From a virus (lineage: Duplodnaviria; Caudoviricetes): a stretch of DNA of 64,000 bases. Of this stretch, positions 36,672 through 53,197 are shown one piece after another. Under the pieces are notes generated by a model. It had not been told where the DNA came from, did not search any database, and saw only the letters and a list, made by a program, of their open reading frames with translations. The DNA lies in IMG/VR virus record IMGVR_UViG_3300017909_004140, positions 1 through 64,000 of that record. One strand, given 5' to 3'. The translations under genes and the position numbers were made by a program. The stretch's first letter is position 1, and the number at the start of each line of letters is the position of its first letter.

Positions 36672-37823
36672 TCAAGCAGTACGCCACCCTTGCGCCAAAA
36701 TTCTGGCAGTGGGTTCGCTCATATCAACGGAGTTGATTAACGTGGCGTAGCGTTCAATAACATTTTCCCAAGTAAATAGTTCTTTAGAATAGTCTCTTCC
36801 TGTTATATTTCTATCATAACAAGCTCTCATTTTTCCTGCTAAATCATGAATATCAGGTTCAGCAGCAATTGCGTGTCCTCCCATTGTAGTTAGAGAGTCT
36901 CCTGGTTTCATCATCATATATTTAGGATCATCTGCTTTTACTACTACTGCTTTTGGAGGAATTCTACATAAATCATCTCTTACAAACTCATCAGTAGGAC
37001 CATCTCCAGTGACTAAAGGAAAACAACCGCAAGCCATAGCTTCTTGTACATGCATACCAAATCCTTCTCCGCGATAAGGATGTACTAGTACATGACTTGA
37101 TTTGTATATTCTGCTCATGTCAATCTCACTAAGCTGATTCCCGATATATTCAATTTCTGCACAACCAGTGTCATACTGTAGTTTTACTAGTTGAGGCACA
37201 ACCTGATAATCTCCATAAACAGCTGGATTATCTTTAATAATTAACTTTGCATTATCTTCTTTTTTAAATACCTGACTCCAAATTTGAAGTAGAATGTCTA
37301 AACCTTTTCTCCACTGAGCATTTCCTACAAAAACAAAAGTGTATTTATCGTTAAGATTTTTCTTTTTAGTGTTAAAAAACTTTGTATCATAACCATTAGG
37401 AATTACTTCTACTTTATCTGGTCTGAGACCTGCTTCTTTGTAAATGTTTGCAGTCCAGGTTGAAGGCGTAATAACCTTATCTACAAAAGTTTCAAACTTA
37501 TATTGCCACTCGAAAGGTAGTTTTCTATATTCCCAAGGCTGGATTTGAAAAACTCTTGTCTTATCAGACACAGGCCATCTCCAGATCGGTGGGTAAGTAT
37601 GCCTAAGTTGAATATCTGGCTCCTCTGTCATAGATTTAGTAGTCAGTTTTTTAATTTCTTTTAGCTCTGTGCTAGAAACATTATACTGAGGATCATAACT
37701 ATCTAAAACATTTATATATACATCAATATTATCTACTTTTGATAATCCAATTGCTAGCTTTCTATTAATAATAGATAAGCTATGGTTATCAAAAAACTTT
37801 CCAATAATTTCTACTTTTTTCAT
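36672..37823 (-). CDS. GT4-like (GT-B) glycosyltransferase
   Basis: FVG...RKGLD, HPYRGEGFGMHVQEAMACG. Confidence 0.9.
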   Translation of the reverse strand: MKKVEIIGKFFDNHSLSIINRKLAIGLSKVDNIDVYINVLDSYDPQYNVSSTELKEIKKLTTKSMTEEPDIQLRHTYPPIWRWPVSDKTRVFQIQPWEYRKLPFEWQYKFETFVDKVITPSTWTANIYKEAGLRPDKVEVIPNGYDTKFFNTKKKNLNDKYTFVFVGNAQWRKGLDILLQIWSQVFKKEDNAKLIIKDNPAVYGDYQVVPQLVKLQYDTGCAEIEYIGNQLSEIDMSRIYKSSHVLVHPYRGEGFGMHVQEAMACGCFPLVTGDGPTDEFVRDDLCRIPPKAVVVKADDPKYMMMKPGDSLTTMGGHAIAAEPDIHDLAGKMRACYDRNITGRDYSKELFTWENVIERYATLINSVDMSEPTARILAQGWRTA

Positions 37824-38656
37824 ATTGTGATCCCCTCAGCCTGTTCTACAGCTTTTCTTCTAAATTCTTGTTTATCTATGGCAGTAAGTCTTGCCCATTG
37901 TGCAGGATCTCCAAGTCCTGATGTTTTAAAGTTTTTCAATTCAGCATAATTTTGTGGATTAATTCGTAACCAGATGTCATAAAAAGGATCTTTCTCTACT
38001 AAATCTGCATGTCCAATATTATTAATTTTTTGATGTAAATCTTTATCTTTTCTACAAATGCTCCAGTGCAATATCGCTAAAGGTGTTTTTAACAATTTTT
38101 TATTACTTTGAGCATTATTTGTCCATCTTGCATATACAAACTCATGGTTACTCCAGTTTGCAAAACCCTGTGTTTCGTTTAAATCCCAATTTCCATGATC
38201 ATCAGTAATCATTAAATAAACATCTTCAAACTCTTTATAAGGTAAAAACCAGTTAAAAGCTAAATCATAATCTTTGTAATACGGCTCCACTATCGGTAAG
38301 TAGTTTTCAAAAAAATGATTTGCGTTAATTAGTTCTTCATCTGCATCAAAACTGAAAATCCAATCATGAGTGCATTGTTTCTTTAAAAAGTTTCTTTCAT
38401 AGTTATCGTTATCTATAAACACATTTGAAACACAAAAGTCATCTTCGATGATTGTAATTTTATTATCTCCATCAATATTAGATAATTGTCTATACAGATC
38501 TTGTTCATCAAACTTAAATGTATTTCCTGCCCAGGTTTTTCTGTTTTTATCTAGTCCTAGAATAATTTCATCTACATAGGCATAATATGACATGATACTT
38601 GCAGGTAAGTACTCTGCATCATAACTAATTAGACTAATCGCTGACTTCTTTTGCAT
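37820..38656 (-). CDS. GT2-like (GT-A) glycosyltransferase
   Basis: YVDEII, ERN, WIFSFDADE. Confidence 0.7.
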   Translation of the reverse strand: MQKKSAISLISYDAEYLPASIMSYYAYVDEIILGLDKNRKTWAGNTFKFDEQDLYRQLSNIDGDNKITIIEDDFCVSNVFIDNDNYERNFLKKQCTHDWIFSFDADEELINANHFFENYLPIVEPYYKDYDLAFNWFLPYKEFEDVYLMITDDHGNWDLNETQGFANWSNHEFVYARWTNNAQSNKKLLKTPLAILHWSICRKDKDLHQKINNIGHADLVEKDPFYDIWLRINPQNYAELKNFKTSGLGDPAQWARLTAIDKQEFRRKAVEQAEGITI

Positions 38657-38927
38657 TTTTTATTCCTTTATAAATTCCTGTTACTATTGCCTCTAAAATA
38701 ATCATTGGAAGCAGTGTTAAAAACAGTAGTACTCCAAATACTACAATAAAAACTGTTGTTACTGCTACAAATACTTTTTCGAAAACTAGAGAAGTGTATG
38801 TATGTGAGATTTTATTATCTACATCATGTTTTTTCAACATTTCTTCTAGTTGTTCATAATTTACTAACTTTGAGTTCATTCTTTTACCGTTACGTCTAGT
38901 GTTGAAAATAGAGGACTGTCTTTCCAT
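38634..38927 (-). CDS. Small membrane protein
   Basis: Long hydrophobic segment (start probably 38879). Confidence 0.6.
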   Translation of the reverse strand: MERQSSIFNTRRNGKRMNSKLVNYEQLEEMLKKHDVDNKISHTYTSLVFEKVFVAVTTVFIVVFGVLLFLTLLPMIILEAIVTGIYKGIKNAKEVSD

Positions 38928-39613
38928 TTATCTTGTAAAATGTTTAGATTATAAGCCTCTGCCTCTACTATTTCTTGTGTTCTAATTCTTTTTACATCTT
39001 TGCTTTGAAAGTGAAACATTGGAATAGGAACTTGGTAAATTTTCCAACCTGCTTTACGCACCTCTAAGCAATAATCAACATCTCTGTTATAGCTCCATTT
39101 ATATCTTGGATCAAAGTCTCCTACCTGATCTAAGACTTCTCTTCTAATATAGATGCCTCCAAAAGTATACCAAGCAACTTCTCTTACTTTATCATATTGA
39201 CCTATATCATACTCTAGTTTTTTAAAATTTTGATTTGTAAATAGTTCTAGTCCTGATCCATAATGATCAGGTTTTCCTTCTTTTGTAAACTTACCTCCAG
39301 CGCACTCGACCGCATATCCTTTGCTAAACTTTTTTGGATATAAGAGTTTTAATCCTAATATGCCTGCCTCTGGATACTGCTCTACATATTCTAATATTTG
39401 TTCATCCCAATTTTCTGCATCTTCATGAGTACTCATATCAGAGTGCATTATAAATACATCTGTATCACAAGAATTCCACAGTCTTTGATACATTAAATCT
39501 GGTCCTAGCTTACTAGTATCTTTTTCTAGTAGTGCAGGCACTCCCCAAGGTAAGTTTTGCTTAAACTCTGATATCTCTTCTTCAAATACATACGGGGTAA
39601 TAATAGTAAACAT
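38876..39613 (-). CDS. GT2-like glycosyltransferase
   Basis: TIITP, MHSD, IRREVLDQVGDFD, DVDYCL. Confidence 0.82.
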   Translation of the reverse strand: MFTIITPYVFEEEISEFKQNLPWGVPALLEKDTSKLGPDLMYQRLWNSCDTDVFIMHSDMSTHEDAENWDEQILEYVEQYPEAGILGLKLLYPKKFSKGYAVECAGGKFTKEGKPDHYGSGLELFTNQNFKKLEYDIGQYDKVREVAWYTFGGIYIRREVLDQVGDFDPRYKWSYNRDVDYCLEVRKAGWKIYQVPIPMFHFQSKDVKRIRTQEIVEAEAYNLNILQDKWKDSPLFSTLDVTVKE

Positions 39614-39756
39614 TATATTTTTTCTAACTCTTCTATTCTAGCTTTTAACCATTCAATAACAATTTTTCTGTTTTTAGTAGGGTGAATATGGGCTTCTAAA
39701 GCATAAAGCTCTTCTTTAAGAATATATAGTACTGCCCAATCTCTACTTGATTTCAT
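39613..39756 (-). CDS. Small hypothetical protein (47 aa; not in ORF track)
   Basis: TAATG coupling at both ends; fills the gap exactly. Confidence 0.65.
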   Translation of the reverse strand: MKSSRDWAVLYILKEELYALEAHIHPTKNRKIVIEWLKARIEELEKI

Positions 39757-40127
39757 TAGTAACTCCTGTGTTGTTTATGCTCAAAAAGTTTACTATCAGT
39801 ATATTTATTAATTAGTTTCTTTAGTCTAGCCCTTTCATCGTTTATAATGTATACACACCGAGATAATTCCACAAACTCTTCTCCAAAATCTTTTTCTTGT
39901 TCGTGCTCTCGTTTTTTATCTTCTACTTCCCATATTTCTGAATTTAAAGTAAACAACATTCTATAATAAATCCAAACATGAGGTATTGACCACCAGTCTT
40001 GGTTTTCTACTATTTCTAAAAGAAGATCTATTTCCTCTTCTACTTCTGAGATACCGTTTTGCTGTTTTACTTCTAAGATGGAGAGTTTATCAAGTAGTTC
40101 TCCGTTTGATACTGGTACTTCAATCAT
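39756..40127 (-). CDS. Conserved protein of glycan clusters (DUF6165-like)
   Basis: VPVSNGELLDKLSILEVK...WEVED...FVELSRCVYIINDERA..K..IN. Confidence 0.7.
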   Translation of the reverse strand: MIEVPVSNGELLDKLSILEVKQQNGISEVEEEIDLLLEIVENQDWWSIPHVWIYYRMLFTLNSEIWEVEDKKREHEQEKDFGEEFVELSRCVYIINDERARLKKLINKYTDSKLFEHKQHRSY

Positions 40128-41131
40128 TAAAACCTCTTTTCTGTCCATGTTTTAGGAGTTTTATTATTAACAATCTCTAAGGGGAGATGGTATTTAAAAG
40201 GTTTAGTTCCTTTTTTTCTAATCCAGTCTGCAGTTAGCTTAACTGCTTCTTCTACTGTTGTTGTTGTTTTGTACCCTAATAACTTTCTTGCTTTATCAGA
40301 AGAACAAGTAGCATGCTTTACTTCTTGTGGTCTTCCTTGTGTATAGTATATGGGATCTTGATTTATTCCAGTCTCGTTAGCGCATAAGTTTGCTAATTCA
40401 GCTATAGTAATTTCTTCTTCATCAGGCCCAATATTAATAGTTTCATATACTATATTTTCCTGGGTTCCCATTTTTTCTAAGCACTGAACACAGTCAGAAA
40501 CATAAGAAAAACATCTAGTTTGATTACCGTCGCCATATATAATTGAAGGCTTTCCTTGTAGATTTCTATTTAACATAATACTCATTACATTTCTAAAAGG
40601 GTCATCGTACTTTTGGTACTCTCCTACTATGTTATGAGGCACTGCGATGTTCCATTCTATATTATGCACCTTACTTAAAACTTTTAGTACTTCTTCTGCT
40701 GCTACTTTAGCAATTCCGTAAGGATCGACTGGAGCAGGGCTCATATCTTCGTTAAAAGGAGGTTTTTGCTCTCCATAACGAGCCATAGAGGTACAAAAAA
40801 CAATTCTTTTTACTCCTGCAGCAATGGCAGCTGAAAAAGTAGTAACTGATGCTTCAAAAATATTACGGGTAATAAATGCAGGAGAAAATACTGATAGTCC
40901 TTCATGCGCTGTAGCAGCACAGTGATAAACTAGATCACAGCCTTTCATTGCTTTTTTCATGGCTTCAAAATCACAACAGTCGCACAAAGTAAAGTCAACA
41001 AAAGAAGGCACGTTATCCTCTTCTCCTCCAATAAAAGTATCATTTCCTGCTACATCAAAACCAAGTTCATGCATTCTGACAGCGATATGATGTCCTAAAA
41101 ATCCTCCGACTCCGGTTATAAATACCTTCAT
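40127..41131 (-). CDS. NAD-dependent sugar epimerase/dehydratase
   Basis: TGVGGFLG, YGIAK, GDGNQTRCF. Confidence 0.9.
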   Translation of the reverse strand: MKVFITGVGGFLGHHIAVRMHELGFDVAGNDTFIGGEEDNVPSFVDFTLCDCCDFEAMKKAMKGCDLVYHCAATAHEGLSVFSPAFITRNIFEASVTTFSAAIAAGVKRIVFCTSMARYGEQKPPFNEDMSPAPVDPYGIAKVAAEEVLKVLSKVHNIEWNIAVPHNIVGEYQKYDDPFRNVMSIMLNRNLQGKPSIIYGDGNQTRCFSYVSDCVQCLEKMGTQENIVYETINIGPDEEEITIAELANLCANETGINQDPIYYTQGRPQEVKHATCSSDKARKLLGYKTTTTVEEAVKLTADWIRKKGTKPFKYHLPLEIVNNKTPKTWTEKRF

Positions 41132-42102
41132 AATAGTTCCTTCACTATATTTGCTTTTTTAATTATTTCTTCTTCTGTTTCTTCGGGAGACACATTGAGA
41201 TAAAACACATTTTCACTCATTTTTTTAGCAGTAGGACTAACGTTTTGACACTCAAATAAAGGTTGCATAGACATTGGCTTAAAAGAATGCCTAGCTGTTA
41301 CTCCTTTTTCGTTTAAGACCCCTACTAGTTCATTAGCTTTAGGGTGTTTGATATCATATACCCAAACTACTTTTCTATTATTAGGCATATGATATTTTTC
41401 TGGGATGATACTATTGTATATCTGAGAAATTCTATGTCTTCTTAATAAATTATCTTTTGCATTTTTCAAAGATTCAAGAGCTAGGTTAGCTTGTGAGTCT
41501 GTGCATCTATAATTAAATCCTATTTGTTCGTGATAATAGTTATGTTTGTTACCGAAACTCATTGACTTCATATCTTGGACTGTATCAATAAAATCTTTGT
41601 CATCAGAGGTTATTACTCCTCCCTCTTCCGCATGAATAATTTTATTTCTATACAAAGAAAAACAACCAATATCAAAAGAGCCGATCTGCTTATTTAATAT
41701 ACTTGCTCCTTGTGCTTCGCAAGCGTCTTCAATAACTCTTAATTTGTATTTCTCAGCAATATTCATAACCTTATCCATGTCTACAACTCTTCCATAAACA
41801 TGAGTTATCATCAATACTTTAGTGTTTTCATCTATAGCTTGTTCTAGTTTATTTAAATCAATTAATAAATTATTATCACAATCAATAAACTTAGGTGTTA
41901 GTCTTGCATAGTATACAGCTAATCCGCTAGCATACATAGTAAATTCAGGCACAATAATATTACTATTTTTGGGTAATTTAAGTGCTTCTATTGATACATG
42001 AAGGGCTGCCGTACCTGTATTAACTGCACAAGCATATTTAGTACCTACGAAATTAGCATATTCTTTTTCTAGTTTTTGATATGGAAACATTACCAGTCCC
42101 AC
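41128..42102 (-). CDS. DegT/DnrJ PLP aminotransferase (perosamine-synthase-like)
   Basis: NTGTAALH, IEDACEA, FSLYRNKII..EGG (Lys present), GFNYR. Confidence 0.88.
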   Translation of the reverse strand: MGLVMFPYQKLEKEYANFVGTKYACAVNTGTAALHVSIEALKLPKNSNIIVPEFTMYASGLAVYYARLTPKFIDCDNNLLIDLNKLEQAIDENTKVLMITHVYGRVVDMDKVMNIAEKYKLRVIEDACEAQGASILNKQIGSFDIGCFSLYRNKIIHAEEGGVITSDDKDFIDTVQDMKSMSFGNKHNYYHEQIGFNYRCTDSQANLALESLKNAKDNLLRRHRISQIYNSIIPEKYHMPNNRKVVWVYDIKHPKANELVGVLNEKGVTARHSFKPMSMQPLFECQNVSPTAKKMSENVFYLNVSPEETEEEIIKKANIVKELL

Positions 42103-43043
42103 TGTTCTCCATTTATTTTAAAGTACTCAATAGTTCTACGAAGAGCCTCTTCTAAATCTACTTCTGGTCTTGTAGAGATTGACTTATATAATTTACTATT
42201 ATCTGACTGTAGATGCCATATCTCCCAAGGTCTAATTCTATCTGGATCTTCTTCAATTGTGATAGAATTATGTCCCATAAGGTTACCAATTAAGTGTGCA
42301 AGATCATAGATTTTGATACCGTCTTCACTGCCCATATTATATACTTCTCCAAAGTCTCCGTTTTCTAATAGATCTACTGCCATACGAACAGCATCTCCTG
42401 CATATTGAAAATCTCTAAAAGAATTATTACCTAGCTTTACGGTATTGCTTTTTGATAATTGAGAAATAATTTCTGGAATAACATAAGCATGAGTCTCTCT
42501 TTCTCCTACACAGTTAAACTGTCTCATAGCAATGGCAGGTATTTTTGATTCTCTCCATCTTACCTGGACTAATCCATCTGCTGCTAGCTTAGAAACTCCA
42601 TAAGTAGAGTGAGGCTCTACAGGATCATCTTCTGTTATCTTACCAGTTAAATCTCCATATATCTCAGCAGAAGATACTTGTAGCAGTCCTTTTATTTTAG
42701 CCTGTTCACAAGCTACTAACACTCTTAATACGGCTGTTGCGTTGATATCAAAGAAGTGCATGGGTCTATCAAAACACTCTGGAATATAAGGCTCTGCTGC
42801 ATAGTTAAACACATACTTGATATCATTTTCTACCAATATGTCAGCTAGTTCTGTAGCATCATCTCTAATATCATGCCACATAAACTCCGCTTCTTCATGA
42901 ATATGTTTTTTAGATCCTGAAATTAAGTTATCAAGTACTAATACTTTACAATCTCTTTCATCAATTAAATAGTCTACCAAGTGTGAGCCTAAAAATCCCG
43001 CACCTCCAATAACACATACATTTGTGTTTCTGATATTTCTCAT
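42090..43043 (-). CDS. NAD-dependent sugar 4,6-dehydratase-like protein
   Basis: GGAGFLG, SSAEIYG, YGVSK. Confidence 0.88.
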   Translation of the reverse strand: MRNIRNTNVCVIGGAGFLGSHLVDYLIDERDCKVLVLDNLISGSKKHIHEEAEFMWHDIRDDATELADILVENDIKYVFNYAAEPYIPECFDRPMHFFDINATAVLRVLVACEQAKIKGLLQVSSAEIYGDLTGKITEDDPVEPHSTYGVSKLAADGLVQVRWRESKIPAIAMRQFNCVGERETHAYVIPEIISQLSKSNTVKLGNNSFRDFQYAGDAVRMAVDLLENGDFGEVYNMGSEDGIKIYDLAHLIGNLMGHNSITIEEDPDRIRPWEIWHLQSDNSKLYKSISTRPEVDLEEALRRTIEYFKINGEQWDW

Positions 43044-43465
43044 TGTTTCCTCCTAGCAGGATTTCCATAATAAGTACCTGATTCAGTTATATCTCTAGTA
43101 ACTACTGCTCCTGCTCCTATAACTACATTGTCGCAAATACTAACAGGTAAAATAGTAGCGTTGCTTCCAATTAATACATTATTTCCAATATTAGTTGATA
43201 ATAGCCCTTCAGGATTTAGCTTTAAATTTGTAAATTTATCGTTTGTAAACATAACTCCGTGCCCAATAAAGCAGTCTTCTCCTATATTTACATGACTACA
43301 AATAAAAGAGTGACTTTGTACTCTTGTTCTTTTACCTACATAAACTTTTGCTTGTATTTCTACAAAAGGGCCTACAAATACATCATCGTCTAAATGACAG
43401 CCATAAATATTAACTTCGTCAAATATATTTACATTTTTACCGAGAACAACATTATCTTCAACCAT
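43040..43465 (-). CDS. Left-handed beta-helix sugar N-acetyltransferase
   Basis: Hexapeptide repeats, GVMFTND, GAGAVVTRD, GNPAR. Confidence 0.9.
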   Translation of the reverse strand: MVEDNVVLGKNVNIFDEVNIYGCHLDDDVFVGPFVEIQAKVYVGKRTRVQSHSFICSHVNIGEDCFIGHGVMFTNDKFTNLKLNPEGLLSTNIGNNVLIGSNATILPVSICDNVVIGAGAVVTRDITESGTYYGNPARRKQ

Positions 43466-44321
43466 TTTTTAAAGCTTTTAGTCTTTCTATCATTTTATCC
43501 ATCATAATACCGATATCTAAGTGATCAAACGCTTTCCTAGTATCATTTAAGTCTAAAACTGGAGTATTATCCCAAGTTTCTTTTAAAACTCTTTTGAAAT
43601 CTTCATAGTCATCATATTTAAAATAGATTCCTCTATCTCCTAAGTAATCTTTAGCACCCATATAAGGAGAATCACTAACTATACAAGGCTTGCCGTGATA
43701 ATATCCTTCTAGTAAGGTTAAGCCTCCTGTTGATGCCTCATAGTACTCGCATACCGTAAAAGCACACTCTAGTAATACTTTTTGAAACTCTCTTTCTCCA
43801 AAAGTATGAACTGTTTCAACATAAGGAATATCTAATTCTTGACAAGCTCTTTTAGTCCACCCATAATTTGGATCATTATAGTATTGTCTGAGCGGATTAT
43901 AAACATACCTTTTATCTATTATTTGATCATCGTTTGCGTCAAATTTTCTAAACCATGTTAAAATAATTTTACACTTATCTCCGATACCGAAGTACTCTTC
44001 CATACGTTTAACAACTTCTTCAGAAGGACACCATAGTTCTACGCATTTTTCTAAATATTCTCCGTATCCTTTCCAATCATAAACTCCTCTTTTATCTTCC
44101 CATGCCCATTTATAAAAGTCCCATGTATAGTTTATCATCGGAATATTAGGAAATTTTTTGTGTGCTGCTTTCCACCATTCTAATCTGGCTTGCCCTGTGC
44201 ACACGATAAAATCACAATCTTCACTAACTTCATTTAAGAGTACTTCTACTCCTTTTTCTCTTAATACAGGAATCCACGGTTCAACATTTTGTGATGGAGG
44301 AGTAATTAAACAAATTTTCAT
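43458..44321 (-). CDS. GT-B-like glycosyltransferase
   Basis: EASTGGLTLLEG...GKP.IVSD resembles the GT4 E-x7-E motif. Confidence 0.65.
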   Translation of the reverse strand: MKICLITPPSQNVEPWIPVLREKGVEVLLNEVSEDCDFIVCTGQARLEWWKAAHKKFPNIPMINYTWDFYKWAWEDKRGVYDWKGYGEYLEKCVELWCPSEEVVKRMEEYFGIGDKCKIILTWFRKFDANDDQIIDKRYVYNPLRQYYNDPNYGWTKRACQELDIPYVETVHTFGEREFQKVLLECAFTVCEYYEASTGGLTLLEGYYHGKPCIVSDSPYMGAKDYLGDRGIYFKYDDYEDFKRVLKETWDNTPVLDLNDTRKAFDHLDIGIMMDKMIERLKALKNG

Positions 44322-45352
44322 CTTACAAACCAGCCTTTCTTCGCTCTATCATAATCTTCTTTTGCCATCGAAATTACCAATTCTTCAAATGACATTTTTG
44401 GTTTCCAGTTAAGTAATTCAGTTGCTTTAGAGTAGTCTCCAAGTAAGGTATCTACTTCTGCCGGTCTAAAATGTATAGGATTTACTTTTGCTATTACTTT
44501 ATTGGTTACTTCATTAACTGCGATTTTTCCCAAACCTTCTCCCTGAATACTAATTTTCATATCTAGAAACTCAGCAGTTTTTAGTAAGAACTCTTCAACA
44601 GAGTGTTCAATACCTGTAGCAACTACATAGTCTTCCGCTTTATCGTGTTGCAACATTAAATGCATTGCTTCAACAAAATCTCCTGCAAAGCCCCAGTCTC
44701 TTTTAGCTTCAAAATTACCTAATTCTAATACTAAGTCTTCTCCTGTTGCCATTCTAGCTAAATGAGTAGAAATTTTTCTGGTAACAAACTCTTCTCCTCT
44801 TAAAGGAGACTCGTGATTAAATAATATACCACAAGAACCAAATATATCATAAGATTCTCTGTAATTTATAGTGATGTTGTGAGCAAATACTTTAGCACAA
44901 GCGTAGGGACTTCTAGGATAAAACTTAGTCGTTTCTTTCTGTACTTTTTCTTGTATTAGTCCAAACATTTCAGAAGAAGATGCTTGATAAAATTTAATTT
45001 TAGGGTTAATAATTCGTATTGCTTCAAGTATTTTTAACGTAGAAAGTGCTGTTACTTCAGATGTATATATTGGCTGATCAAAACTAGCCCTTACAAAGCT
45101 CTGCGCTCCTAAATTATATATCTCATCTGGTTCGATGGAAGAAATAGTTTTTATTATATTGCTTTGTTCTAATAATTCTAAAGATACTAAATTAATTTCT
45201 TTATCTATCTCTAACTCTTTTAATCTCCATATGTTTCCTGTACTTGATCTACGAACAGCCCCATAAACATCATATCCTTTTTCTAATAAAAGTTTTGCTA
45301 AATACGCACCGTCTTGTCCAGTAATACCAGTAACTAAAGCTTTTTTAGTCAT
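44318..45352 (-). CDS. gmd: GDP-mannose 4,6-dehydratase
   Basis: TGITGQDGAYLA, AQSFV, FYQASSSEMFG, PRSPYA, NHESPLRGEEFVTRK. Confidence 0.96.
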   Translation of the reverse strand: MTKKALVTGITGQDGAYLAKLLLEKGYDVYGAVRRSSTGNIWRLKELEIDKEINLVSLELLEQSNIIKTISSIEPDEIYNLGAQSFVRASFDQPIYTSEVTALSTLKILEAIRIINPKIKFYQASSSEMFGLIQEKVQKETTKFYPRSPYACAKVFAHNITINYRESYDIFGSCGILFNHESPLRGEEFVTRKISTHLARMATGEDLVLELGNFEAKRDWGFAGDFVEAMHLMLQHDKAEDYVVATGIEHSVEEFLLKTAEFLDMKISIQGEGLGKIAVNEVTNKVIAKVNPIHFRPAEVDTLLGDYSKATELLNWKPKMSFEELVISMAKEDYDRAKKGWFVR

Positions 45353-46539
45353 ATATGTGTCTCCATCATTCTAAAAAAGTAGTCAATTTGTTCATACATC
45401 TTACTAGGATTATTACCGATAAAGAATCCTTGAGTATCAAGAATATCAGACCCTTCATAACCTTTAATATTTTGCTTTGTATTCAGCCTTCTAATAACAG
45501 GGTTGTTCATAAAATTACCTGCTACAATTGGCCTGCACTCAATACCGTTTTCTATTAATTTATCTACTATTTTATCTCTATTTAGACCTGATCTTAATAC
45601 TATACCAAAACCAAACCAACTACTGTATGTTGTGTTTTTAAATCCATCTTCTTCTTCTCTTTGCAAATAAAAATCAGGGTTACCACTAACTCCTAATCTT
45701 TCTTTAAAGTAAGCTGCATTTTCTCTTCTGGCAAGAGTCATATCTTCCATTTTTCTAAGCTGCGCTTGCCCTATGGCTCCACTCATTTCTAAGGGTCTAA
45801 CGCTATAACCAGGTAGTGCAAAACGAAAACTATCTTTGAAAGGATTTCCAATTTTATTACACACTGTGTTTTCTTTTGGAAGCTCTCTCATCCAACCGTG
45901 TGCTCTTAAACTTTTACAATATTCTGCTAATTTTAAATCATCTGTTAGGATCATTCCTCCTTCCATCGTTTGCATATGATGACTAAAGAAAAAAGAATAA
46001 GTACCCATTAGACCAATACTGCCTAAGTATCTTCCTTTATATTTTGCTCCTAAGCTTTCACAGTTGTCTTCTATTAAAATTAAATTATGTCTATGGCACA
46101 GCTCTATTAATTGAGCATATTCACAAGAATTGCCTAATAGATTAACAGCAAAAATAGCTTTTGTTTTTTCTGATATATTTTCTTCAATATCATTAACGTC
46201 TATATTAAAAGTGTGCGGGTTGACATCTACAAATTTCATTGTTAACCCGTATTGATGAACCGGAAAAAAAGTAGTACTCCAACTAACAGCAGGTACAATG
46301 ACTTCGTCTCCAGGATTTAAATCAATATCCTCATTAAGAACTAAACTAGCAATCATCAACAAGTTTGCAGAACTGCCACTATTTACCATAACTGCATGTT
46401 TTTTACCCATACTAGTTGCAAACTGCTTTTCAAATTTTTCTACTTCTGGTCCCATAGTGAACCTATTACTATTTATTACTTTTTGGATCATACCTAACTC
46501 TTCATGATCCCACGTTTCACATGCTAGTGGATATCTCAT
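45349..46539 (-). CDS. ColD-like GDP-4-keto-6-deoxymannose 3-dehydratase (PLP)
   Basis: VNSGSSANLL, EDNCES, SFFFSHHMQTMEGG (His in place of the catalytic Lys); adjacent to gmd. Confidence 0.82.
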   Translation of the reverse strand: MRYPLACETWDHEELGMIQKVINSNRFTMGPEVEKFEKQFATSMGKKHAVMVNSGSSANLLMIASLVLNEDIDLNPGDEVIVPAVSWSTTFFPVHQYGLTMKFVDVNPHTFNIDVNDIEENISEKTKAIFAVNLLGNSCEYAQLIELCHRHNLILIEDNCESLGAKYKGRYLGSIGLMGTYSFFFSHHMQTMEGGMILTDDLKLAEYCKSLRAHGWMRELPKENTVCNKIGNPFKDSFRFALPGYSVRPLEMSGAIGQAQLRKMEDMTLARRENAAYFKERLGVSGNPDFYLQREEEDGFKNTTYSSWFGFGIVLRSGLNRDKIVDKLIENGIECRPIVAGNFMNNPVIRRLNTKQNIKGYEGSDILDTQGFFIGNNPSKMYEQIDYFFRMMETHI

Positions 46540-47452
46540 TAACTTTCTCTTTCACTTCTGAATATGTTATACGGTTTATATTTATTGGGTTGAAAATGTA
46601 TGTTCCTTTTTTATTTGGAGGTATAAATGCTGTGGCGTTTTTGTTATGATTAGCTTGCCAATAAGAAGCCAGCACTATAGTTGGGTGTTCATAAGCAGAC
46701 ATGATCCACATAGAACCACTGTCTGTCCCTATACTAATATCACAAGCTAAGGCTGCCTTTATTTGAGTAAAAAACTCATAACTAGTTAAGTTGTGGTAAT
46801 TATCACTTTCCGATAAGACAGGTTCTCCCACCCATCCAAAATGGTATATAGTATATCCATCAGAAATTAAGCTAGCAACGGCAGAAACCCACCAATCTTT
46901 ACTAGGAGACCTTCCATTATTGCTTCCATAACCAGCGAAAGGCCAAATGGCTAATGACTTATCTGCAATGGTTACAAAGCTTTCTCTCTTTCTAGAATAC
47001 CCATGCTGCGCATAGTTATCTGGTAAAGAAGGAGTAAACCATTTGTACAACTTAGGAATTTGTTCGTCTTCTGTTAATACTTCTGTTAAATCTTCTATTT
47101 GATTTGCTTTTGCTGTATTTTCTATACAGCCCCAATAATTATACCAATCAGATACTTTATGGTTTTGTTTTAATACAATTTTATTTTCGTGATCTAGTCT
47201 CATAGTAGAAAAATCACAAGAAGCAGCAATTTTATAATCTTCTTTGTCAAATCCGTCCCATGCAGTAATTTTTATTCTGTCAATAAGAGGATGATTGAAA
47301 AATAAAGGAGCTGATTGTGAACATCTTTCTACTATACCAAAATATTTGTAACTACCTGGATATTTTTTTTCAAAATAAGTAAGTTGTGGTAAGGACATAA
47401 CTAAATCTCCTATAATACCAAAACTTGTTCCCCAAATTTTATACATTATCAA
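46517..47452 (-). CDS. GT9 (heptosyltransferase-like) glycosyltransferase
   Basis: IGDLVM..P, IGTDSG..W...A...PTI. Confidence 0.7.
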   Translation of the reverse strand: MIMYKIWGTSFGIIGDLVMSLPQLTYFEKKYPGSYKYFGIVERCSQSAPLFFNHPLIDRIKITAWDGFDKEDYKIAASCDFSTMRLDHENKIVLKQNHKVSDWYNYWGCIENTAKANQIEDLTEVLTEDEQIPKLYKWFTPSLPDNYAQHGYSRKRESFVTIADKSLAIWPFAGYGSNNGRSPSKDWWVSAVASLISDGYTIYHFGWVGEPVLSESDNYHNLTSYEFFTQIKAALACDISIGTDSGSMWIMSAYEHPTIVLASYWQANHNKNATAFIPPNKKGTYIFNPININRITYSEVKEKVNEISTSM

Positions 47453-48257
47453 TATAATCCAGAATATTTTTCCAAGAAATATTTACGTGATTTTCTAATT
47501 CAGTTATATTTGCTTTAGTAAATTTTTGGTATTGCTTTTTTAAATTTTCAGGCATTGGTATATATTTAATCTGTACATTGTATTTTTTAGCTATCTTACG
47601 TCCTATAGCTTCAAAACTTGTAGGATTACCTGTTCCTACATTAAATATACCGTTTTCTGACTTACTCAGCATTTGTTTATGTACTTCGCAAACATCTTCT
47701 ACACAAACAAAATCTCTTTTAAAATTCTCACTATCTTCAAATAAAGTAATCTCTTTTTTATTTATCGCCTGATCAGTAAATTTGGTGTAAGGACTTGCCA
47801 TATCTTTTTTATGTTCTTCTCCTTTTTTACCGTAAACGTTAAAATATCTAAAGCCTTGTACTGTAATATCTTTACCATAATCTGTTTCACGAATGTGCCT
47901 ATCAAACAAGTATTTTGTCCACGCATAGGGAGACTGAGGATTTAAAGACTTGTTTTCTGTAAAATGATTTGTATTACCGTATACGCTAGCACTTGATGCA
48001 TATTGAAAAATTTTAACTTTTTGTGCTATTGCCTCTTTTAATAAAGACTTACTAAAATCATAGTTTTGAAGTACTATCTGATCTACGTCTGAATAAGTTG
48101 TAGAGCTTATCGCCCCAAGATGAATAACTGCGTCTATATTTTTTAGTAAAGGAAATCCGTTTGACCACTCCCAGCCCGTTACTTCATGTTCGTTTTTTAA
48201 ATACTCATAAAGATTACTACCAATAAATCCTTTGTGTCCTGTAATCAGTATTTTCAT
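47439..48257 (-). CDS. hldD: ADP-L-glycero-D-manno-heptose 6-epimerase-like protein
   Basis: GHKGFIG, HLGAISSTT, YASSASVYG, FRYFNVYG..E.HK..MAS, RDFVCV, YQKFTKA. Confidence 0.85.
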   Translation of the reverse strand: MKILITGHKGFIGSNLYEYLKNEHEVTGWEWSNGFPLLKNIDAVIHLGAISSTTYSDVDQIVLQNYDFSKSLLKEAIAQKVKIFQYASSASVYGNTNHFTENKSLNPQSPYAWTKYLFDRHIRETDYGKDITVQGFRYFNVYGKKGEEHKKDMASPYTKFTDQAINKKEITLFEDSENFKRDFVCVEDVCEVHKQMLSKSENGIFNVGTGNPTSFEAIGRKIAKKYNVQIKYIPMPENLKKQYQKFTKANITELENHVNISWKNILDYIDNV

Positions 48258-49099
48258 TTTACTGTCTCTATTATTGTTTTAGCCCAATTATCAGTAGAAT
48301 ATTTTTGAACTGTTTTTCTTCCGTGTTCAGCTATCTCATGTCTTTCTTTTGCGTTTTTCAAATAGTATGAAATTTTATCTTTACAGTCTTCTACACTATC
48401 AAACGTAATAAAATCTTTTCCTACTTCCCAATCGTTTTCCATCAATTCCCATTTTTCAGTCAAGAAAAAACTTCCACAAGCTAATACTTTATATACTCTA
48501 TCTGAGGTTCCTTCTTTATTAGTGGTAAATCCTAAATTGATTTTTGACTGATTTACTACTTTAGTATACTCATGTCCATAAGAATTATTAAAGTTTTTAA
48601 AACCTACTTGTTGAAAATAACCTCCTCGATGATCTTTTAAATATCCAACAAAGCTTGAGTCATAAATTTTTTCAAGTTTCATAGGGCGGTGTAATGTAGG
48701 GTGAAAACCTTCTTGCAAATAGTAACTGTTTGGGTTTGTTTCTTTGAAAATATTTGATAGTTTTTCATACGCGGAAAAAATATAATTGCTATGTTTTACT
48801 TTTTCCATCCACTCACTATCAGCATTCACTAGCGGGTCCATATACCAACACGCAACTTTACAATACTCTTTTGCCTTTTTTATAACATCAATATTTATTG
48901 TATTACCTTTACTGATTAATAGTAAATCAGGAGTATCACTTTTTATTATATTTATAATAGCCTCATCTCTTTGTTTTAAAGAATAAGACCCTATATCTCT
49001 CATATCAAAAGTACTAAGATCAGATACTTTATCAAGGGCTTCTGCTTGCCCTATATTAGTAGAGTTATTTGTAAACACTCCTACATATAAGATTTTCAT
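48254..49099 (-). CDS. CgeB-type (GT-B) glycosyltransferase
   Basis: WYMDP, SFVG, SKINL, SDRVYKVLACG, IAEHG. Confidence 0.8.
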   Translation of the reverse strand: MKILYVGVFTNNSTNIGQAEALDKVSDLSTFDMRDIGSYSLKQRDEAIINIIKSDTPDLLLISKGNTINIDVIKKAKEYCKVACWYMDPLVNADSEWMEKVKHSNYIFSAYEKLSNIFKETNPNSYYLQEGFHPTLHRPMKLEKIYDSSFVGYLKDHRGGYFQQVGFKNFNNSYGHEYTKVVNQSKINLGFTTNKEGTSDRVYKVLACGSFFLTEKWELMENDWEVGKDFITFDSVEDCKDKISYYLKNAKERHEIAEHGRKTVQKYSTDNWAKTIIETVK

Positions 49100-50013
49100 T
49101 TCAGAAAACTCTTTACTCTTTCTATAACGTAGTCAGTATCAGGATTCCAACCTCCTTCATGAATAACTTCTCTTTTACTATTAAAAGGATTCCAATCTGT
49201 GGCGTATCTATGAATATTTTGTGGTATAGTCATTACTACCATATCTGTATCACATAGAGAAGCTAAATGTGCTGGACCACTACAAGTAGTTACTAAAAAC
49301 TTGCATTTATTTAGATACGAAACCGTATCTTCTATTGATATGCCTCGTAAGTCATCACAGTAGTTTGGTACTACAGATTCGTGTTTTGTACCGATAGCTC
49401 CTAGTTTGTAACCTTCTTTATGAAGAAACGAACAAAGCTTATCCCAAGACTGCCCAGGCCAGTTTTTATTACTAGTTCCGTGATGAAAAGCTTTTCTTGC
49501 GTGAATCAGTGCTTTATAGGGAGACTTTTTTATTGTTTTGCTTTTATATTTGTGAAATAGTTGAGAGCTAAGAAATTTTGGTAGTCTTTCTTCTCTGCCT
49601 GGTCCATCAGCATGATAGTCAACTAAAAAAGTATGAGATGGTATATATAAACAGTTATCTTCTGTTAACCCTAACTTTTCCATAACGTTATTTTTTATAT
49701 CCTTCGGCTGAATATCGGAATGCGGAGTAGGCCAGTCTTGACAAAGTGCTCCGGTAATATTCTCTCCTGGACAGTTGAATTCAATATATGAATCGCAGAA
49801 ATCCTCGTAGATAAAACTTCTTCCCGTTCTGCTAATTATGTTAAATGTTTTTAGGTGTGGGTTATCTCTTCTCATTTTTCTCAAATAACCCTGACAGCCG
49901 AATAACTCCCAACCGAATTCTCCTACCCAAGGACCAAATAATACGTGCTCTACATTTTTGACTTTTTCACTCATTTCATTATGATTTAAATGCATATTAA
50001 CCCTCGATATCAA
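49096..50013 (-). CDS. GT9-like glycosyltransferase
   Basis: GPWVGEFGWE, KNWP, DLRG, SGPAHLA. Confidence 0.7.
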   Translation of the reverse strand: MISRVNMHLNHNEMSEKVKNVEHVLFGPWVGEFGWELFGCQGYLRKMRRDNPHLKTFNIISRTGRSFIYEDFCDSYIEFNCPGENITGALCQDWPTPHSDIQPKDIKNNVMEKLGLTEDNCLYIPSHTFLVDYHADGPGREERLPKFLSSQLFHKYKSKTIKKSPYKALIHARKAFHHGTSNKNWPGQSWDKLCSFLHKEGYKLGAIGTKHESVVPNYCDDLRGISIEDTVSYLNKCKFLVTTCSGPAHLASLCDTDMVVMTIPQNIHRYATDWNPFNSKREVIHEGGWNPDTDYVIERVKSFLK

Positions 50014-50701
50014 TACTGTTCCATAAATTATCCCAATTTACTACAGGACTCATATGAAATGGTGTTAGATGTGTAGAACAACCAGGTACAGGAGATATAC
50101 AAGGGTGTGTTTGGAACATTTCTTTTGTTGGGTTATGTGGAGCAGTTTCATTTATAAGATCCCAACACTCTAACCAAGTTTTTGTTTTACCAGCAAAAGT
50201 ATATGTTGTTGAGGGATTGGTTCTCCAGTGTCTGTCTGTATCTACCATTAAAAAACAAGGAGTCTTATCTTTGGTATACCTATCAGGGTAATCCATTGTA
50301 GTAACCCAGTTATTCCATTTTGTAAAAATTAGTTTCATAGCAGAGATTGCGTCTGGAGTATGTAGGTAATCATCTTCAACTACGTAATGAACCTCTTCTG
50401 GATCGCTCATATCTAACTGTGTTTTTAAAAATTCTAACATTTTAAAGGTGTGAAGCCTGTCGTGAATATCGTGTTTAGGAATTTCTAAAAAAGTTGTGTT
50501 CTCATAAGAATTTTTTTCTATAAAATCCATTGTTTCTTGTGTTACATCATCATGCAATATGAAAACTTCATCAGACTCTTCAATTCCATCATAAATAGAT
50601 TTCCAACATTTGCGAACAGTTTTCCACTTAGGAATTTCATCCCACCTAGGAACTCCACTAACACTTTCTTGTTTTTCACAGCATCGAAAGTAAATTTTCA
50701 T
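49997..50701 (-). CDS. GT-A-like glycosyltransferase
   Basis: HYVVEDDYLH, DYPDRY, STTYTFA, SPVPG.STH. Confidence 0.6.
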   Translation of the reverse strand: MKIYFRCCEKQESVSGVPRWDEIPKWKTVRKCWKSIYDGIEESDEVFILHDDVTQETMDFIEKNSYENTTFLEIPKHDIHDRLHTFKMLEFLKTQLDMSDPEEVHYVVEDDYLHTPDAISAMKLIFTKWNNWVTTMDYPDRYTKDKTPCFLMVDTDRHWRTNPSTTYTFAGKTKTWLECWDLINETAPHNPTKEMFQTHPCISPVPGCSTHLTPFHMSPVVNWDNLWNSIDIEG

Positions 50702-51416
50702 CTATAACTACTCCTAACCCACAACTACCATAAAAACCAAGATGTTTGTAGTTGTCTTCTTTATATTCATCTTCAAAAGCTTTTCTCTCCCAAAATTGTT
50801 TTATCCATTCTGGTCTAGAAATAAATTTTAACTCCTCTTCTTCTGCATTTACAGAGAAAGACCATTCATGATATACAATTGTCGCTTTTGGGTATTTTTT
50901 CTTAATTTCTTTTGCGATAGCATAACAAAATATCTGTCTATGATCTGCATCAACAAATATTAAATCATACTCATCTTCTGAGTCTTTTATAAACTCTATT
51001 GCGTCCCCTTTGTAAAAAGAGATATTTTCATTTTCTAGGTATTCTTTGTACTTATCACACATTCTATGAGGTACTTTAACATCTACCCCGTCAAACTGGG
51101 AATCTTCCGGTAAAGCTTCTCTAATTAGGCTTCCGCTGATTCCTTGAGCTACTCCTATCTCTAGTACTTTTTGTGGTTTAAGTTTTTTAAGTAGTGTATA
51201 AAAAACTCTGGCCTCGTTGTAATCAAGAGTGCCAGAGCCTGCCCATTCTCCTCCATAGTCTGCGTGTGCTTCTATAGATTGCTTTAAAAACCAACTATCC
51301 CACATTTCATTAAAATTTTCTGTCTCTTCTTCCCATGAAGAGAAACAGTTATTTAATTGAGAAATAAAGGTAAGGCTAGTTTCGGAATAACTTTTTGTAT
51401 CTTTTTGTTTAATCAT
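50676..51416 (-). CDS. Class I SAM-dependent methyltransferase
   Basis: VLEIGVAQGIS, YDLIFVDADH; start moved to 51416 after the AAGGAAG SD. Confidence 0.85.
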   Translation of the reverse strand: MIKQKDTKSYSETSLTFISQLNNCFSSWEEETENFNEMWDSWFLKQSIEAHADYGGEWAGSGTLDYNEARVFYTLLKKLKPQKVLEIGVAQGISGSLIREALPEDSQFDGVDVKVPHRMCDKYKEYLENENISFYKGDAIEFIKDSEDEYDLIFVDADHRQIFCYAIAKEIKKKYPKATIVYHEWSFSVNAEEEELKFISRPEWIKQFWERKAFEDEYKEDNYKHLGFYGSCGLGVVIDENLLSML

Positions 51417-51435
51417 TTTTCTTCCTTTAAATAGT

Positions 51436-51463
51436 ATTATACACAAATTGTAAAAATTTTCAA
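51436..51463 (-). promoter_or_regulatory. Promoter of the glycan operon
   Basis: TTGAAA-N16-TATAAT with an extended -10 TG. Confidence 0.6.
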
Positions 51464-51870: not shown

Positions 51871-51929
51871 TATGTAACCTTTCATCTCATAAAAATACAC
51901 TTAATAGTTTTCTATTAAGTGTTAATAGT

Positions 51930-52386
51930 TGTGGCCCGTTCTGTTGCTAGGTGGTGCCATACCCCATTAGACTATGCCGCTAAGGGCATATCCATAGGTG
52001 CAAAATTATCGTTTGCAATTGTTTTATTCTTGCGGTTAAGGTCGCTTGCGCACCTGTCTCTCGATTTGATTTTTATTGAGTCTGTCGATCCTATTTCGCC
52101 CCCATCATAAAAGCACGCGTATCAAACAAAATTGCTCATAGTTTTCTTCAAATCCTGTTTCATAATCTGCAAGAGGAGCTCCATTACTTCCAGAAACCCA
52201 GAGTCTTCTGAAATATCCGTCATAGGAATCTTCTACTTGCTGAGGAGTTACTTTACGAAGGTCTCCCTTAACCATATAGTAAACTCTACATTTTTCTTTG
52301 AATGTTACCATGCGTTTATGGTGGAGGCGCCGGGTACCGCCCCCGGGTCCAGTCCGCCTATTCTATCTCTTCTCAAACGAGACAAT
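51930..52386 (-). ncRNA. ssrA: Circularly permuted two-piece tmRNA (alphaproteobacterial type)
   Basis: Acceptor piece ~52386-52319 ends GGACCCGGGGGCGGTACCCGGCGCCTCCACCA. Coding piece starts GGGGGCGAAATAGGATCGAC at 52103. The 7-bp acceptor stem has G3-U70. Tag at 52016-51972 = ANDNFAPMDMPLAA-stop. Outer ends are approximate. Confidence 0.93.
52105..52311 (-). CDS. 68-aa ORF nested in the tmRNA intervening segment
   Basis: ATG 7 nt after CCA; TGA ends 1 nt before G1 of the coding piece. Confidence 0.65.
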   Translation of the reverse strand: MVTFKEKCRVYYMVKGDLRKVTPQQVEDSYDGYFRRLWVSGSNGAPLADYETGFEENYEQFCLIRVLL

Positions 52387-52737
52387 TTATTCCTTGAAAA
52401 ATAGCTCTAGTTCGTCTAATATCCAAGTACTAATTTCTAAAGTACCAAATAATATAATTAGCATAAAAGGCACTATTATAAATAAAAATATAGTTAGCAC
52501 TATTTTTTGCCAGCGATTACATTTTTCTACATAAAAATGAGCAAATAGTCTTAATCCGGCTTTAATTTTTTCTTTTAACCAATCTCCGAAGAAATTACGA
52601 AAAAGTCGCATTACTATTAATATAGGAGAAGTTATAACATCCCATACAAGTAATACTACGTCTACTATTAGATCAATAATATGATCTATTGTAAACCAGT
52701 TTTTTATTCTGTTTTTGAAATTATTTTTGTAAACCAA
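52387..52737 (-). CDS. Membrane protein (two hydrophobic segments)
   Basis: IIDLIVDVVLLVW...ILIV and IVLTIFLFIIVPFMLIILF. Confidence 0.75.
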   Translation of the reverse strand: MVYKNNFKNRIKNWFTIDHIIDLIVDVVLLVWDVITSPILIVMRLFRNFFGDWLKEKIKAGLRLFAHFYVEKCNRWQKIVLTIFLFIIVPFMLIILFGTLEISTWILDELELFFKE

Positions 52738-52996: not shown

Positions 52997-53197
52997 CTAT
53001 AACGACATTTCTTCTTTTTTACGTTCTAGTCTTTTAATTCTAGCTACCGCTTCTTTGTGTTTGATACGTCTTTTTTCGCCTTTAGTAATATGGTATCTTT
53101 TTTCTTTTAGCTTTTTAAAAATACCTTCTGTGTTTAATTTTCTACTAAGAATTTTGTAGGCTTTTCCCACATCATTATTTCGTACTTTAATATACAT
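52997..53197 (-). CDS. rpsU: 30S ribosomal protein bS21
   Basis: IKVRNNDVGKAYKILSRKLNTEGIFKKLKEKRYH..KGEKRR matches the alphaproteobacterial-type S21 pattern. Confidence 0.88.
   Translation of the reverse strand: MYIKVRNNDVGKAYKILSRKLNTEGIFKKLKEKRYHITKGEKRRIKHKEAVARIKRLERKKEEMSL

Follow-up and report, generated by a model that had tools for sequence, protein, structure and literature searches.

In the tmRNA gene of an uncultured marine phage of about 107 kb, the spacer between the two pieces of the permuted gene is filled by a 68-codon reading frame. Because the gene lies within the tmRNA spacer, one transcript would serve both as messenger and as the source of a stable RNA. Taken as a whole, the comparative evidence makes it probable that this is a genuine gene in an exchangeable tmRNA-spacer slot, translated from the same transcript before processing. 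The two parts of this reading differ in strength. That a real gene occupies an exchangeable slot is very likely, and for translation ahead of processing the chances appear evenly balanced. The sequence comes from an IMG/VR virus record of 107,337 bp with an estimated completeness of 91%, and the window analysed here covers its first 64 kb.

Results

A permuted tmRNA gene at the end of a short operon

A preliminary description of this DNA, made from the letters alone, had read a permuted two-piece tmRNA in it, and both ARAGORN and Rfam bear this out. On the minus strand, the alphaproteobacterial model RF01849 (alpha_tmRNA) scores 123.5 bits, against a gathering threshold of 50, over 51930-52430, the extent of the permuted precursor. 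RF04321 (tmRNA_permuted) scores 104.5 bits against a threshold of 47, and the alignments to both models open a large insertion between CCA and G1. ARAGORN calls a single permuted tmRNA at 51881-52413 (minus strand) with the tag ANDNFAPMDMPLAA. The gene order is the permuted one, with the acceptor piece (52319-52386, minus strand) upstream of the coding piece (51930-52103, minus strand). The acceptor piece comprises the T-arm, the 3′ strand of the acceptor stem and an encoded CCA, and terminates in ...CGCCTCCACCA, the CCA ending at 52319. The coding piece begins at the G1 of GGGGGCG (52103), which by homology is the RNase P site. A 7-bp acceptor stem joins the two pieces, CGCCUCC pairing with GGGGGCG with a U-G at the third pair. 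The tag reading frame (52016-51972, minus strand) opens with a GCA resume codon, has a hydrophobic ..LAA end and closes with a TAG stop. Between the pieces lies the spacer, an intervening segment of 215 nt (52104-52318, minus strand) that is not part of the mature tmRNA. The boundaries first proposed, with CCA at 52319, G1 at 52103, a 215-nt spacer and the ORF at 52311-52105, proved exact to the base.

The T-arm, CCGGGGGCGGTACCCGG, is the same as in most sampled bacterial alpha-type tmRNAs. A SAR11 host was considered and is unsupported, the T-arm being of the common alphaproteobacterial type and not of the Pelagibacter type. The remark that no smpB is visible in the window holds there and also across the entire 107,337-bp record, where no SmpB gene was found; host SmpB would therefore be needed.

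Reading along the minus strand, a consensus sigma-70 promoter (TTGACA-17-TATAAT, 53561-53533, a 12/12 match) is followed by four small ORFs, the tmRNA and, directly after it, a terminator-like hairpin with a T-run (51922-51897). This order makes the tmRNA, with its nested gene, the final element of a short operon. None of the sequencing runs recorded as RNA contains this stretch, and the contigs of one possible RNA run cover just the conserved acceptor part. The second cistron encodes a phage ribosomal protein bS21 (52997-53197, minus strand; Pfam PF01165, E 2.1e-13). The other three small ORFs, of 83, 96 and 116 aa, have no known function, and the 116-aa product is hydrophobic. The remainder of the window codes for enzymes of replication and nucleotide metabolism, and for a long series of enzymes that modify sugars. 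Directly downstream of the tmRNA operon, 36672-51446 (minus strand) is a long same-strand run of glycosyltransferases with an SDR epimerase/dehydratase and an O-methyltransferase-like protein.

The nested reading frame evolves as a protein gene

The ORF that fills the spacer, P0001 (52105-52311, minus strand), has its ATG (52311-52309) beginning 7 nt past CCA and its TGA (52107-52105) finishing 1 nt before G1. A word-indexed search returned eight relatives of 76-95% identity, and an alignment search of viral and metagenome contigs yielded 28 loci. Rfam places the P0001 homologue inside a permuted tmRNA in 15 of these 28, and ARAGORN adds two; further nested cases are a truncated contig (L021) and L035. 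Altogether about 18 related tmRNA loci carry the P0001-type ORF in intact form. The reading frame itself is intact in every one of the 28 fetched loci, nested or not, and its lengths differ by whole codons.

Selection was measured by the Nei-Gojobori method (NG86) over codons 4-60, with the helix-constrained ends excluded, and dN/dS was 0.02-0.16 across unsaturated pairs. Between the window and L016, synonymous and non-synonymous changes stand at 9 : 1 (dN/dS 0.02); the window gives 0.05 with L002 and 0.15 with L019. For L004 and L023 the changes are 8 : 0 (dN/dS 0), and the ratio is 0.08 for L003 with L022 and 0.16 for L027 with L028. In distant pairs synonymous sites are saturated, and the proteins are still 48-69% identical. 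In a variant contig from a marine metagenome the ORF differs at 22 places, 16 of them third codon positions by our own count. The contig also has a 1-nt deletion offset by a 1-nt insertion 4 nt away (window 52236-52240), so that the frame is kept. An ORF that stays intact at all related loci and is under such strong purifying selection is beyond chance, and by these comparative measures the 68-codon ORF is a genuine, selected phage protein gene. The preliminary description had named frameshifts, stops or neutral evolution in homologous loci as grounds for abandoning a nested gene, and the 28 loci contain none of them; instead the frame is conserved with dN/dS well below 1.

Where does the protein begin? 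Conservation at the protein level covers residues 1-12 (..FKEKCR.YY), in nested as well as free-standing copies, and the first ATG is for this reason taken as the true start. Most of the eight close relatives are annotated as 56-aa proteins starting at Met13. This form, produced by gene callers, is ruled out by the conservation of residues 1-12, which extends to the free-standing homologues. Two antisense ORFs, at 51919-52110 and 52132-52404 (plus strand), are likewise ruled out, since substitutions track the minus-strand frame. Gene callers have also run some nested ORFs upstream through the acceptor piece (P0010 and P0024, with N-termini like ..GAVPHASTIN..), and as a result public protein sets contain chimeric 'proteins' that are part tmRNA.

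A conserved helix closes the spacer

The two ends of the spacer are complementary. The 5′ arm (ACCA plus UAAACGCAUGGUAA, 52305-52322, minus strand) contains the start codon, and the 3′ arm (UACGCGUGCUUUUAUGAU, 52104-52121, minus strand) encodes the C-terminal ..RVLL and the TGA. At all nested loci the first 13-14 nt past ACCA pair with the last nucleotides before G1, giving a helix of about 13 bp on top of the acceptor stem. In a covariation alignment of 24 sequences (loci), six unrelated cargos included, 92.3% of the alignment cells pair, as against 39-54% when the partner is slid. Six helix pairs have changed on both sides, with compensatory changes at two adjacent positions (C-G/A-U/U-A/G-C at one, A-U/G-C at the other), and the covariation score was reached by none of 500 shuffles. 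The duplex energy predicted by ViennaRNA is -14.1 kcal/mol when only the extension is counted and -29.5 kcal/mol when the acceptor stem is included. Pairing and covariation thus show the extension helix to be real, as the first reading of the spacer ends had proposed.

The helix bears directly on both ends of the gene. The last five codons (..RVLL and the stop) are invariant because they form the 3′ arm, and the UGA of the window is positioned opposite the CCA tail. The AUG of the window lies inside the helix (as A-U, U-G and G-C pairs), and in the precursor it is predicted to be unpaired with a probability of about 0. On its own, the excised spacer is likewise predicted to pair both ends, with the AUG fully paired; the predicted fold of the whole spacer has an MFE of -48.7 kcal/mol. 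In the window no Shine-Dalgarno motif precedes the ATG of P0001 and, with the AUG buried in the helix as well, efficient initiation is uncertain. Three relatives (L027, L028 and L005) carry a GGAG motif at the helix edge, 5-7 nt upstream of ATG.

At the other end, the conserved junction ..UUAUGAU/GGGGGCGAAAUAGG.. (the stroke stands before G1) offers stops in two frames: one frame closes with a UGA finishing 1 nt ahead of G1, the second with a UAG that ends 13 nt past G1. The UGA is used by the window and by L002-L004, L016, L017, L019 and L022-L024, and the UAG by L005, L026, L028 and L035. L027 is without that UAG, and its frame runs about 70 nt into the mature tmRNA. Many other cargo ORFs also stop 13 nt or more past G1. 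Where the stop lies past G1, RNase P cleavage would yield a non-stop message, and only the unprocessed precursor contains the frame in full. The free-standing homologues carry ordinary stops.

The spacer is a general cargo slot in marine phage tmRNA genes

When sequences were scanned with one exact pattern for the 5′ end of the tmRNA, at least 120 viral loci were among the matches listed, and 111 of these 120 were accepted as tmRNA on the strength of a T-arm, the 7-bp complementary strand and NCCA upstream. The same scan with one genome per bacterial species listed at least 107 alphaproteobacterial tmRNAs. Since both samples are the matches listed for one exact pattern, and hence non-random, their proportions are indicative only: the 111 listed viral spacers measure 5 to 499 nt (median 78 nt) and 32 of them reach at least 110 nt, whereas the 107 listed bacterial spacers have a median of 29 nt and only 2 reach that length. 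The Pelagibacter spacer has 12 nt, and the rare long bacterial spacers look like hairpins without ORFs.

The long viral spacers have the appearance of coding DNA. Among the listed matches, 26 of the 32 have a forward strand that is open over 80% or more of its length, and the mean openness of the 32 is 0.89 forward, 0.74 reverse and 0.61 in shuffles. Each listed spacer of at least 150 nt has p<=0.12 against its own shuffles, with p<=0.06 in 15 of 18. The cargo families are many and mutually unrelated, and some are under purifying selection; besides P0001 there is, for instance, a family of 43-47 aa present in four loci, with dN/dS 0.08-0.5. Membrane peptides also occur as cargo, and among the listed cargos only L035 matches the P0001 family (HMM E 5.5e-23). 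A Shine-Dalgarno-like motif is present in 18 of 28 cargo ORFs, often straight after CCA. The AUG that the helix provides 7 nt past CCA is used by three unrelated cargos (the P0001 family, L119 and L143). In these surveys, the spacer slot is shown to be general and phage-specific in the tmRNA genes of marine phages.

Some individual cargos may be mentioned here. A 120-aa membrane protein occupies the 499-nt spacer of L087 (IMGVR_UViG_3300030430_000853), L084 and L092 hold a conserved 74-aa membrane protein, and the spacer of L105 encodes a very basic, Cys-containing peptide of 55 aa.

Spacers and tmRNA pieces have partly separate histories. L004 and L024 share identical spacers (100%), with 89% identity in the acceptor piece, 87% in the coding piece and about 60% in the flanks. 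L019 and L004 present the reverse case, with 100% identity in the acceptor piece, 93% in the coding piece and about 80% in the flanks, and 70% in the spacer. The spacer of the window is 86-88% identical to those of L002, L017 and L019, and the tmRNA pieces are 73-83% identical. Such comparisons of identity show that spacers have been exchanged between tmRNA genes as cassettes.

Two 311-nt spacers hold a second conserved small ORF (L018:3204-3312 and L020:1938-2044; M-T-E/K-L/I-D..KLQKAYVKVYG..). It joins the first by an overlapping ATGA or by ATGAC..TAA, reads into the tmRNA 5′ end, and sits between a relic and the working 3′ arm of the helix. The relic arm in L018 gives the impression that a cassette entered at the conserved TTTATGA.

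The P0001 family is mostly free-standing

A profile search of 1.8 billion representatives gathered 130 clusters of the P0001 family at E<=1e-3, of which 53 also reach E<=1e-10. They are without exception small marine-virus proteins, of 44-125 aa, with the shared motif ..KEA.RLFW.VKGHL..YDSYFKRLW..GFEEAY... P0001 matches the profile over its whole length and keeps the invariant residues K15, R36 and F54. With context judged from the termini, a nesting signature at the C- or N-terminus is seen in only about 5 of 129 representatives, and more than 90% of the family clusters look free-standing. Ten fetched loci are indeed free-standing genes with no tmRNA around them. At three free-standing loci that were examined, the neighbours are 2OG-Fe(II) oxygenases, a dNMP kinase, a cytidylyltransferase and a phosphomannomutase. 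No tmRNA was found in a 96-kb and a 75-kb record with free-standing copies, both of them incomplete records. In one phage fragment (L009/L030, IMGVR_UViG_3300021957_005605), a free-standing member lies about 20 kb from a permuted tmRNA whose spacer is short, at about 28 nt. In a family tree built on 76 columns, which is poorly resolved and in which the context of most representatives is judged from termini, the nested members must have arisen at least twice if only branches with strong support are counted, and the best tree requires five origins.

An AlphaFold2 model built from 22 sequences is a three-helix protein (pLDDT 80.7, pTM 0.70), and P0001 is accordingly modelled as a small soluble three-helix protein. 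No convincing structural neighbour emerged from Foldseek against PDB and BFVD or from a wide VIA-align search (best Z 3.6). P0001 and 67 relatives have no match in Pfam and PHROGs (for P0001, Pfam was searched up to E = 10). The ESM Atlas gave no identity either, and the source names of the relatives are all 'hypothetical protein'. By tblastn against GenBank phages, no homologue was found for P0001, P0057 or P0021. None of the Pfam, PHROG, Foldseek and VIA-align searches returned a match to the fold or family of any translation factor.

Discussion

How might a gene in such a position be expressed? In the reading that we favour, the transcript would begin at the consensus promoter (53561) and would also carry bS21. 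The slot is closed by the conserved helix, and the helix together with the tmRNA 5′ end provides ready-made signals, namely an AUG 7 nt past CCA and two stops, a UGA finishing 1 nt ahead of G1 and a UAG 13 nt past it. Small genes could enter and leave by recombination via the conserved helix arms. Ribosomes would translate the cargo chiefly from the precursor while it is nascent or still unprocessed, ahead of synthesis of the 3′ arm and closure of the helix. Helix closure, the RNase P cut and trimming of the CCA end would then stop translation and free the two tmRNA pieces. Translation on the precursor is favoured because many frames end past G1, because the AUG of the window would be open only until the 3′ arm is made some 200 nt later, and because the excised spacer, too, is predicted to retain the helix. 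Two observations stand against a mere slot: the family has entered spacers at least twice, a possible sign of some functional link with tmRNA, and one phage combines a free-standing copy with a short-spacer tmRNA.

The rival account that survives best is the released mini-mRNA of the preliminary description. Here the spacer would be cut out by RNase P at G1 and by trimming at the CCA end, and would then be translated with a 7-nt leader, so that output follows tmRNA maturation. This resembles the release of mitochondrial mRNAs by tRNA punctuation. The limits of the ORF nearly coincide with both processing sites, three unrelated cargos (again the P0001 family, L119 and L143) share the AUG at +7, and short-leader and leaderless mRNAs are common in Alphaproteobacteria, all of which counts for it. 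However, in many related loci the stop lies past G1 and the excised RNA would be stopless, and the excised spacer is predicted to keep a panhandle that buries the AUG. We regard this account as unlikely.

Translation on the precursor could also be built into a feedback circuit. Ribosomes on the nascent spacer would hold the helix open, termination would permit its closure and the RNase P cut, and stops past G1 would lead to self-tagging in an ArfA-like loop. This elaboration strikes us as quite doubtful; if true, the self-limiting loop would meter the cargo protein against rescue capacity.

Is the nested protein a partner of the tmRNA that carries it? The preliminary description had suggested a rescue, processing or proteolysis cofactor. 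In this account P0001 would replace or modulate SmpB, or act in processing or on the tag-directed proteases, and nesting would secure co-expression. The phage is without smpB, the family was captured by spacers at least twice, a free-standing copy and a tmRNA coexist in one phage, and bS21 belongs to the same operon. Nevertheless, more than 90% of the clusters look free-standing, the examined loci lie amid oxygenase, kinase and sugar-nucleotide genes, and the 96-kb and 75-kb records, incomplete as they are, show no tmRNA beside their free-standing copies. Unrelated membrane and basic peptides fill the slot in other phages, and nothing in fold or family recalls a translation factor. Cargo diversity and the free-standing majority disfavour a dedicated role, which repeated capture keeps alive, and we consider it improbable. 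With a slot that hosts many unrelated proteins, a mostly free-standing family and swapped spacers, the cofactor proposal is left unsupported. P0001 is most likely an ordinary accessory protein and not a dedicated part of trans-translation; a role for it as rescue cofactor or in an ArfA-like manner is conceivable but unsupported.

The same description had raised a possible ArfA-like feedback loop. In a fuller form of this autoregulation, processing would give a non-stop or near-non-stop message whose product is tagged by the phage tmRNA and degraded, and the protein would accumulate only when trans-translation is saturated. In Escherichia coli, ArfA is made from a non-stop mRNA generated by RNase III and is repressed by tmRNA tagging. 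The likeness is that relatives of the window would give a stop-less message after a cut by a processing RNase, the family members concerned having their stop 13 to about 70 nt past G1 (L005, L026, L027, L028 and L035); in the window itself, cleavage leaves just 1 nt after the UGA. Yet the stop of the window (TGA, 52107-52105) is complete inside the spacer and would be retained, so stop loss does not apply there. The cargo families are mutually unrelated and none of them matches ArfA, to which P0001 has no sequence relation, and free-standing homologues have ordinary stops. The close relatives L027 and L028 differ in stop position and are otherwise unchanged, which suggests that the tail is incidental. 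As an account of P0001, this autoregulation is very improbable.

Finally, it is scarcely credible that the ORF is untranslated and owes its openness and conservation to RNA-level constraints on a long structured spacer: the spacer is predicted to fold (-48.7 kcal/mol) and the helix does fix the last five codons, but substitutions are concentrated at synonymous sites, indels come in multiples of three, homologous proteins are encoded outside any tmRNA, and GGAG precedes the ATG in related loci.

The genuine gene in an exchangeable slot has several partial precedents. Phage two-piece tmRNAs are already known from the OM43 phage Melnitz and from pelagimyophages (Buchholz et al. 2022, PMC9004378). 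Like the window, these have an alpha-type permuted ssrA downstream of an early-type promoter, and no smpB. The Melnitz paper describes a glutamine riboswitch in the tmRNA 3′ domain and no intervening protein gene (PMC9004378). The phage of the window is a different one, of about 107 kb and with no close GenBank phage relative, and blastn with its tmRNA against GenBank phages returned short conserved stretches only. With the bacterial permuted tmRNAs of Caulobacter and other Alphaproteobacteria it shares gene order, the G-U third pair, the encoded CCA and the LAA tag. It differs in its 215-nt spacer with a gene, bacterial spacers being short (median 29 nt among the 107 listed) and the long ones apparently hairpin-like and ORF-free. 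The 2025 tmRNA database holds 79 phage sequences, and the spacer contents it gives are a tRNA-Ala gene and a repeat element (PMC11915505). Full-text literature searches for ORFs in tmRNA intervening sequences returned nothing relevant, and we found no paper that describes a protein gene within a tmRNA spacer.

Two further systems place a protein gene in a removed part of a stable RNA. The nearest analogue is the S23p ORF, carried by the intervening sequences of the 23S rRNA of Coxiella burnetii and Leptospira, which are excised by RNase III; S23p is reported to be probably not made in vivo (PMC4990558). A protein ORF in a stem-closed segment cut from a stable-RNA precursor is common to both cases. 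The S23p system differs in its host RNA, in its enzyme (RNase III) and in its family (PF05635), to which P0001 has no Pfam match up to E = 10, and the cargo of the window is under clear purifying selection.

Homing-endonuclease genes reside in group I introns of tmRNA and tRNA genes. They too are protein genes in a removed part of a tmRNA, and they too spread horizontally. Here, on the other hand, there is no intron or endonuclease domain, the cargos are of 35-120 aa and of many families, and recombination would proceed via the helix arms.

Why have these genes been overlooked? The spacers of permuted tmRNAs have hitherto been treated as disposable, and in marine phages they are often a protein-coding cassette. 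Such cassettes would make up a hidden class of small genes, masked by annotation once a tmRNA is called or else miscalled as longer ORFs through the acceptor piece. They offer a natural system for studying how a transcript is partitioned between ribosomes and RNase P, and the forms with a stop past G1 are a testable case of possible self-tagging.

A permuted tmRNA also occurs in a cultured phage, the Rhodobacter capsulatus phage RcRudolph (L271:1139-1503; OP009285.1, about 49090-49454). It is of alpha type (RF01849, 94.8 bits), with a GC-rich 98-nt spacer that has no ORF. The tmRNA is unannotated, and at its place the record has a 'hypothetical protein' CDS, RCRUDOLPH_61.
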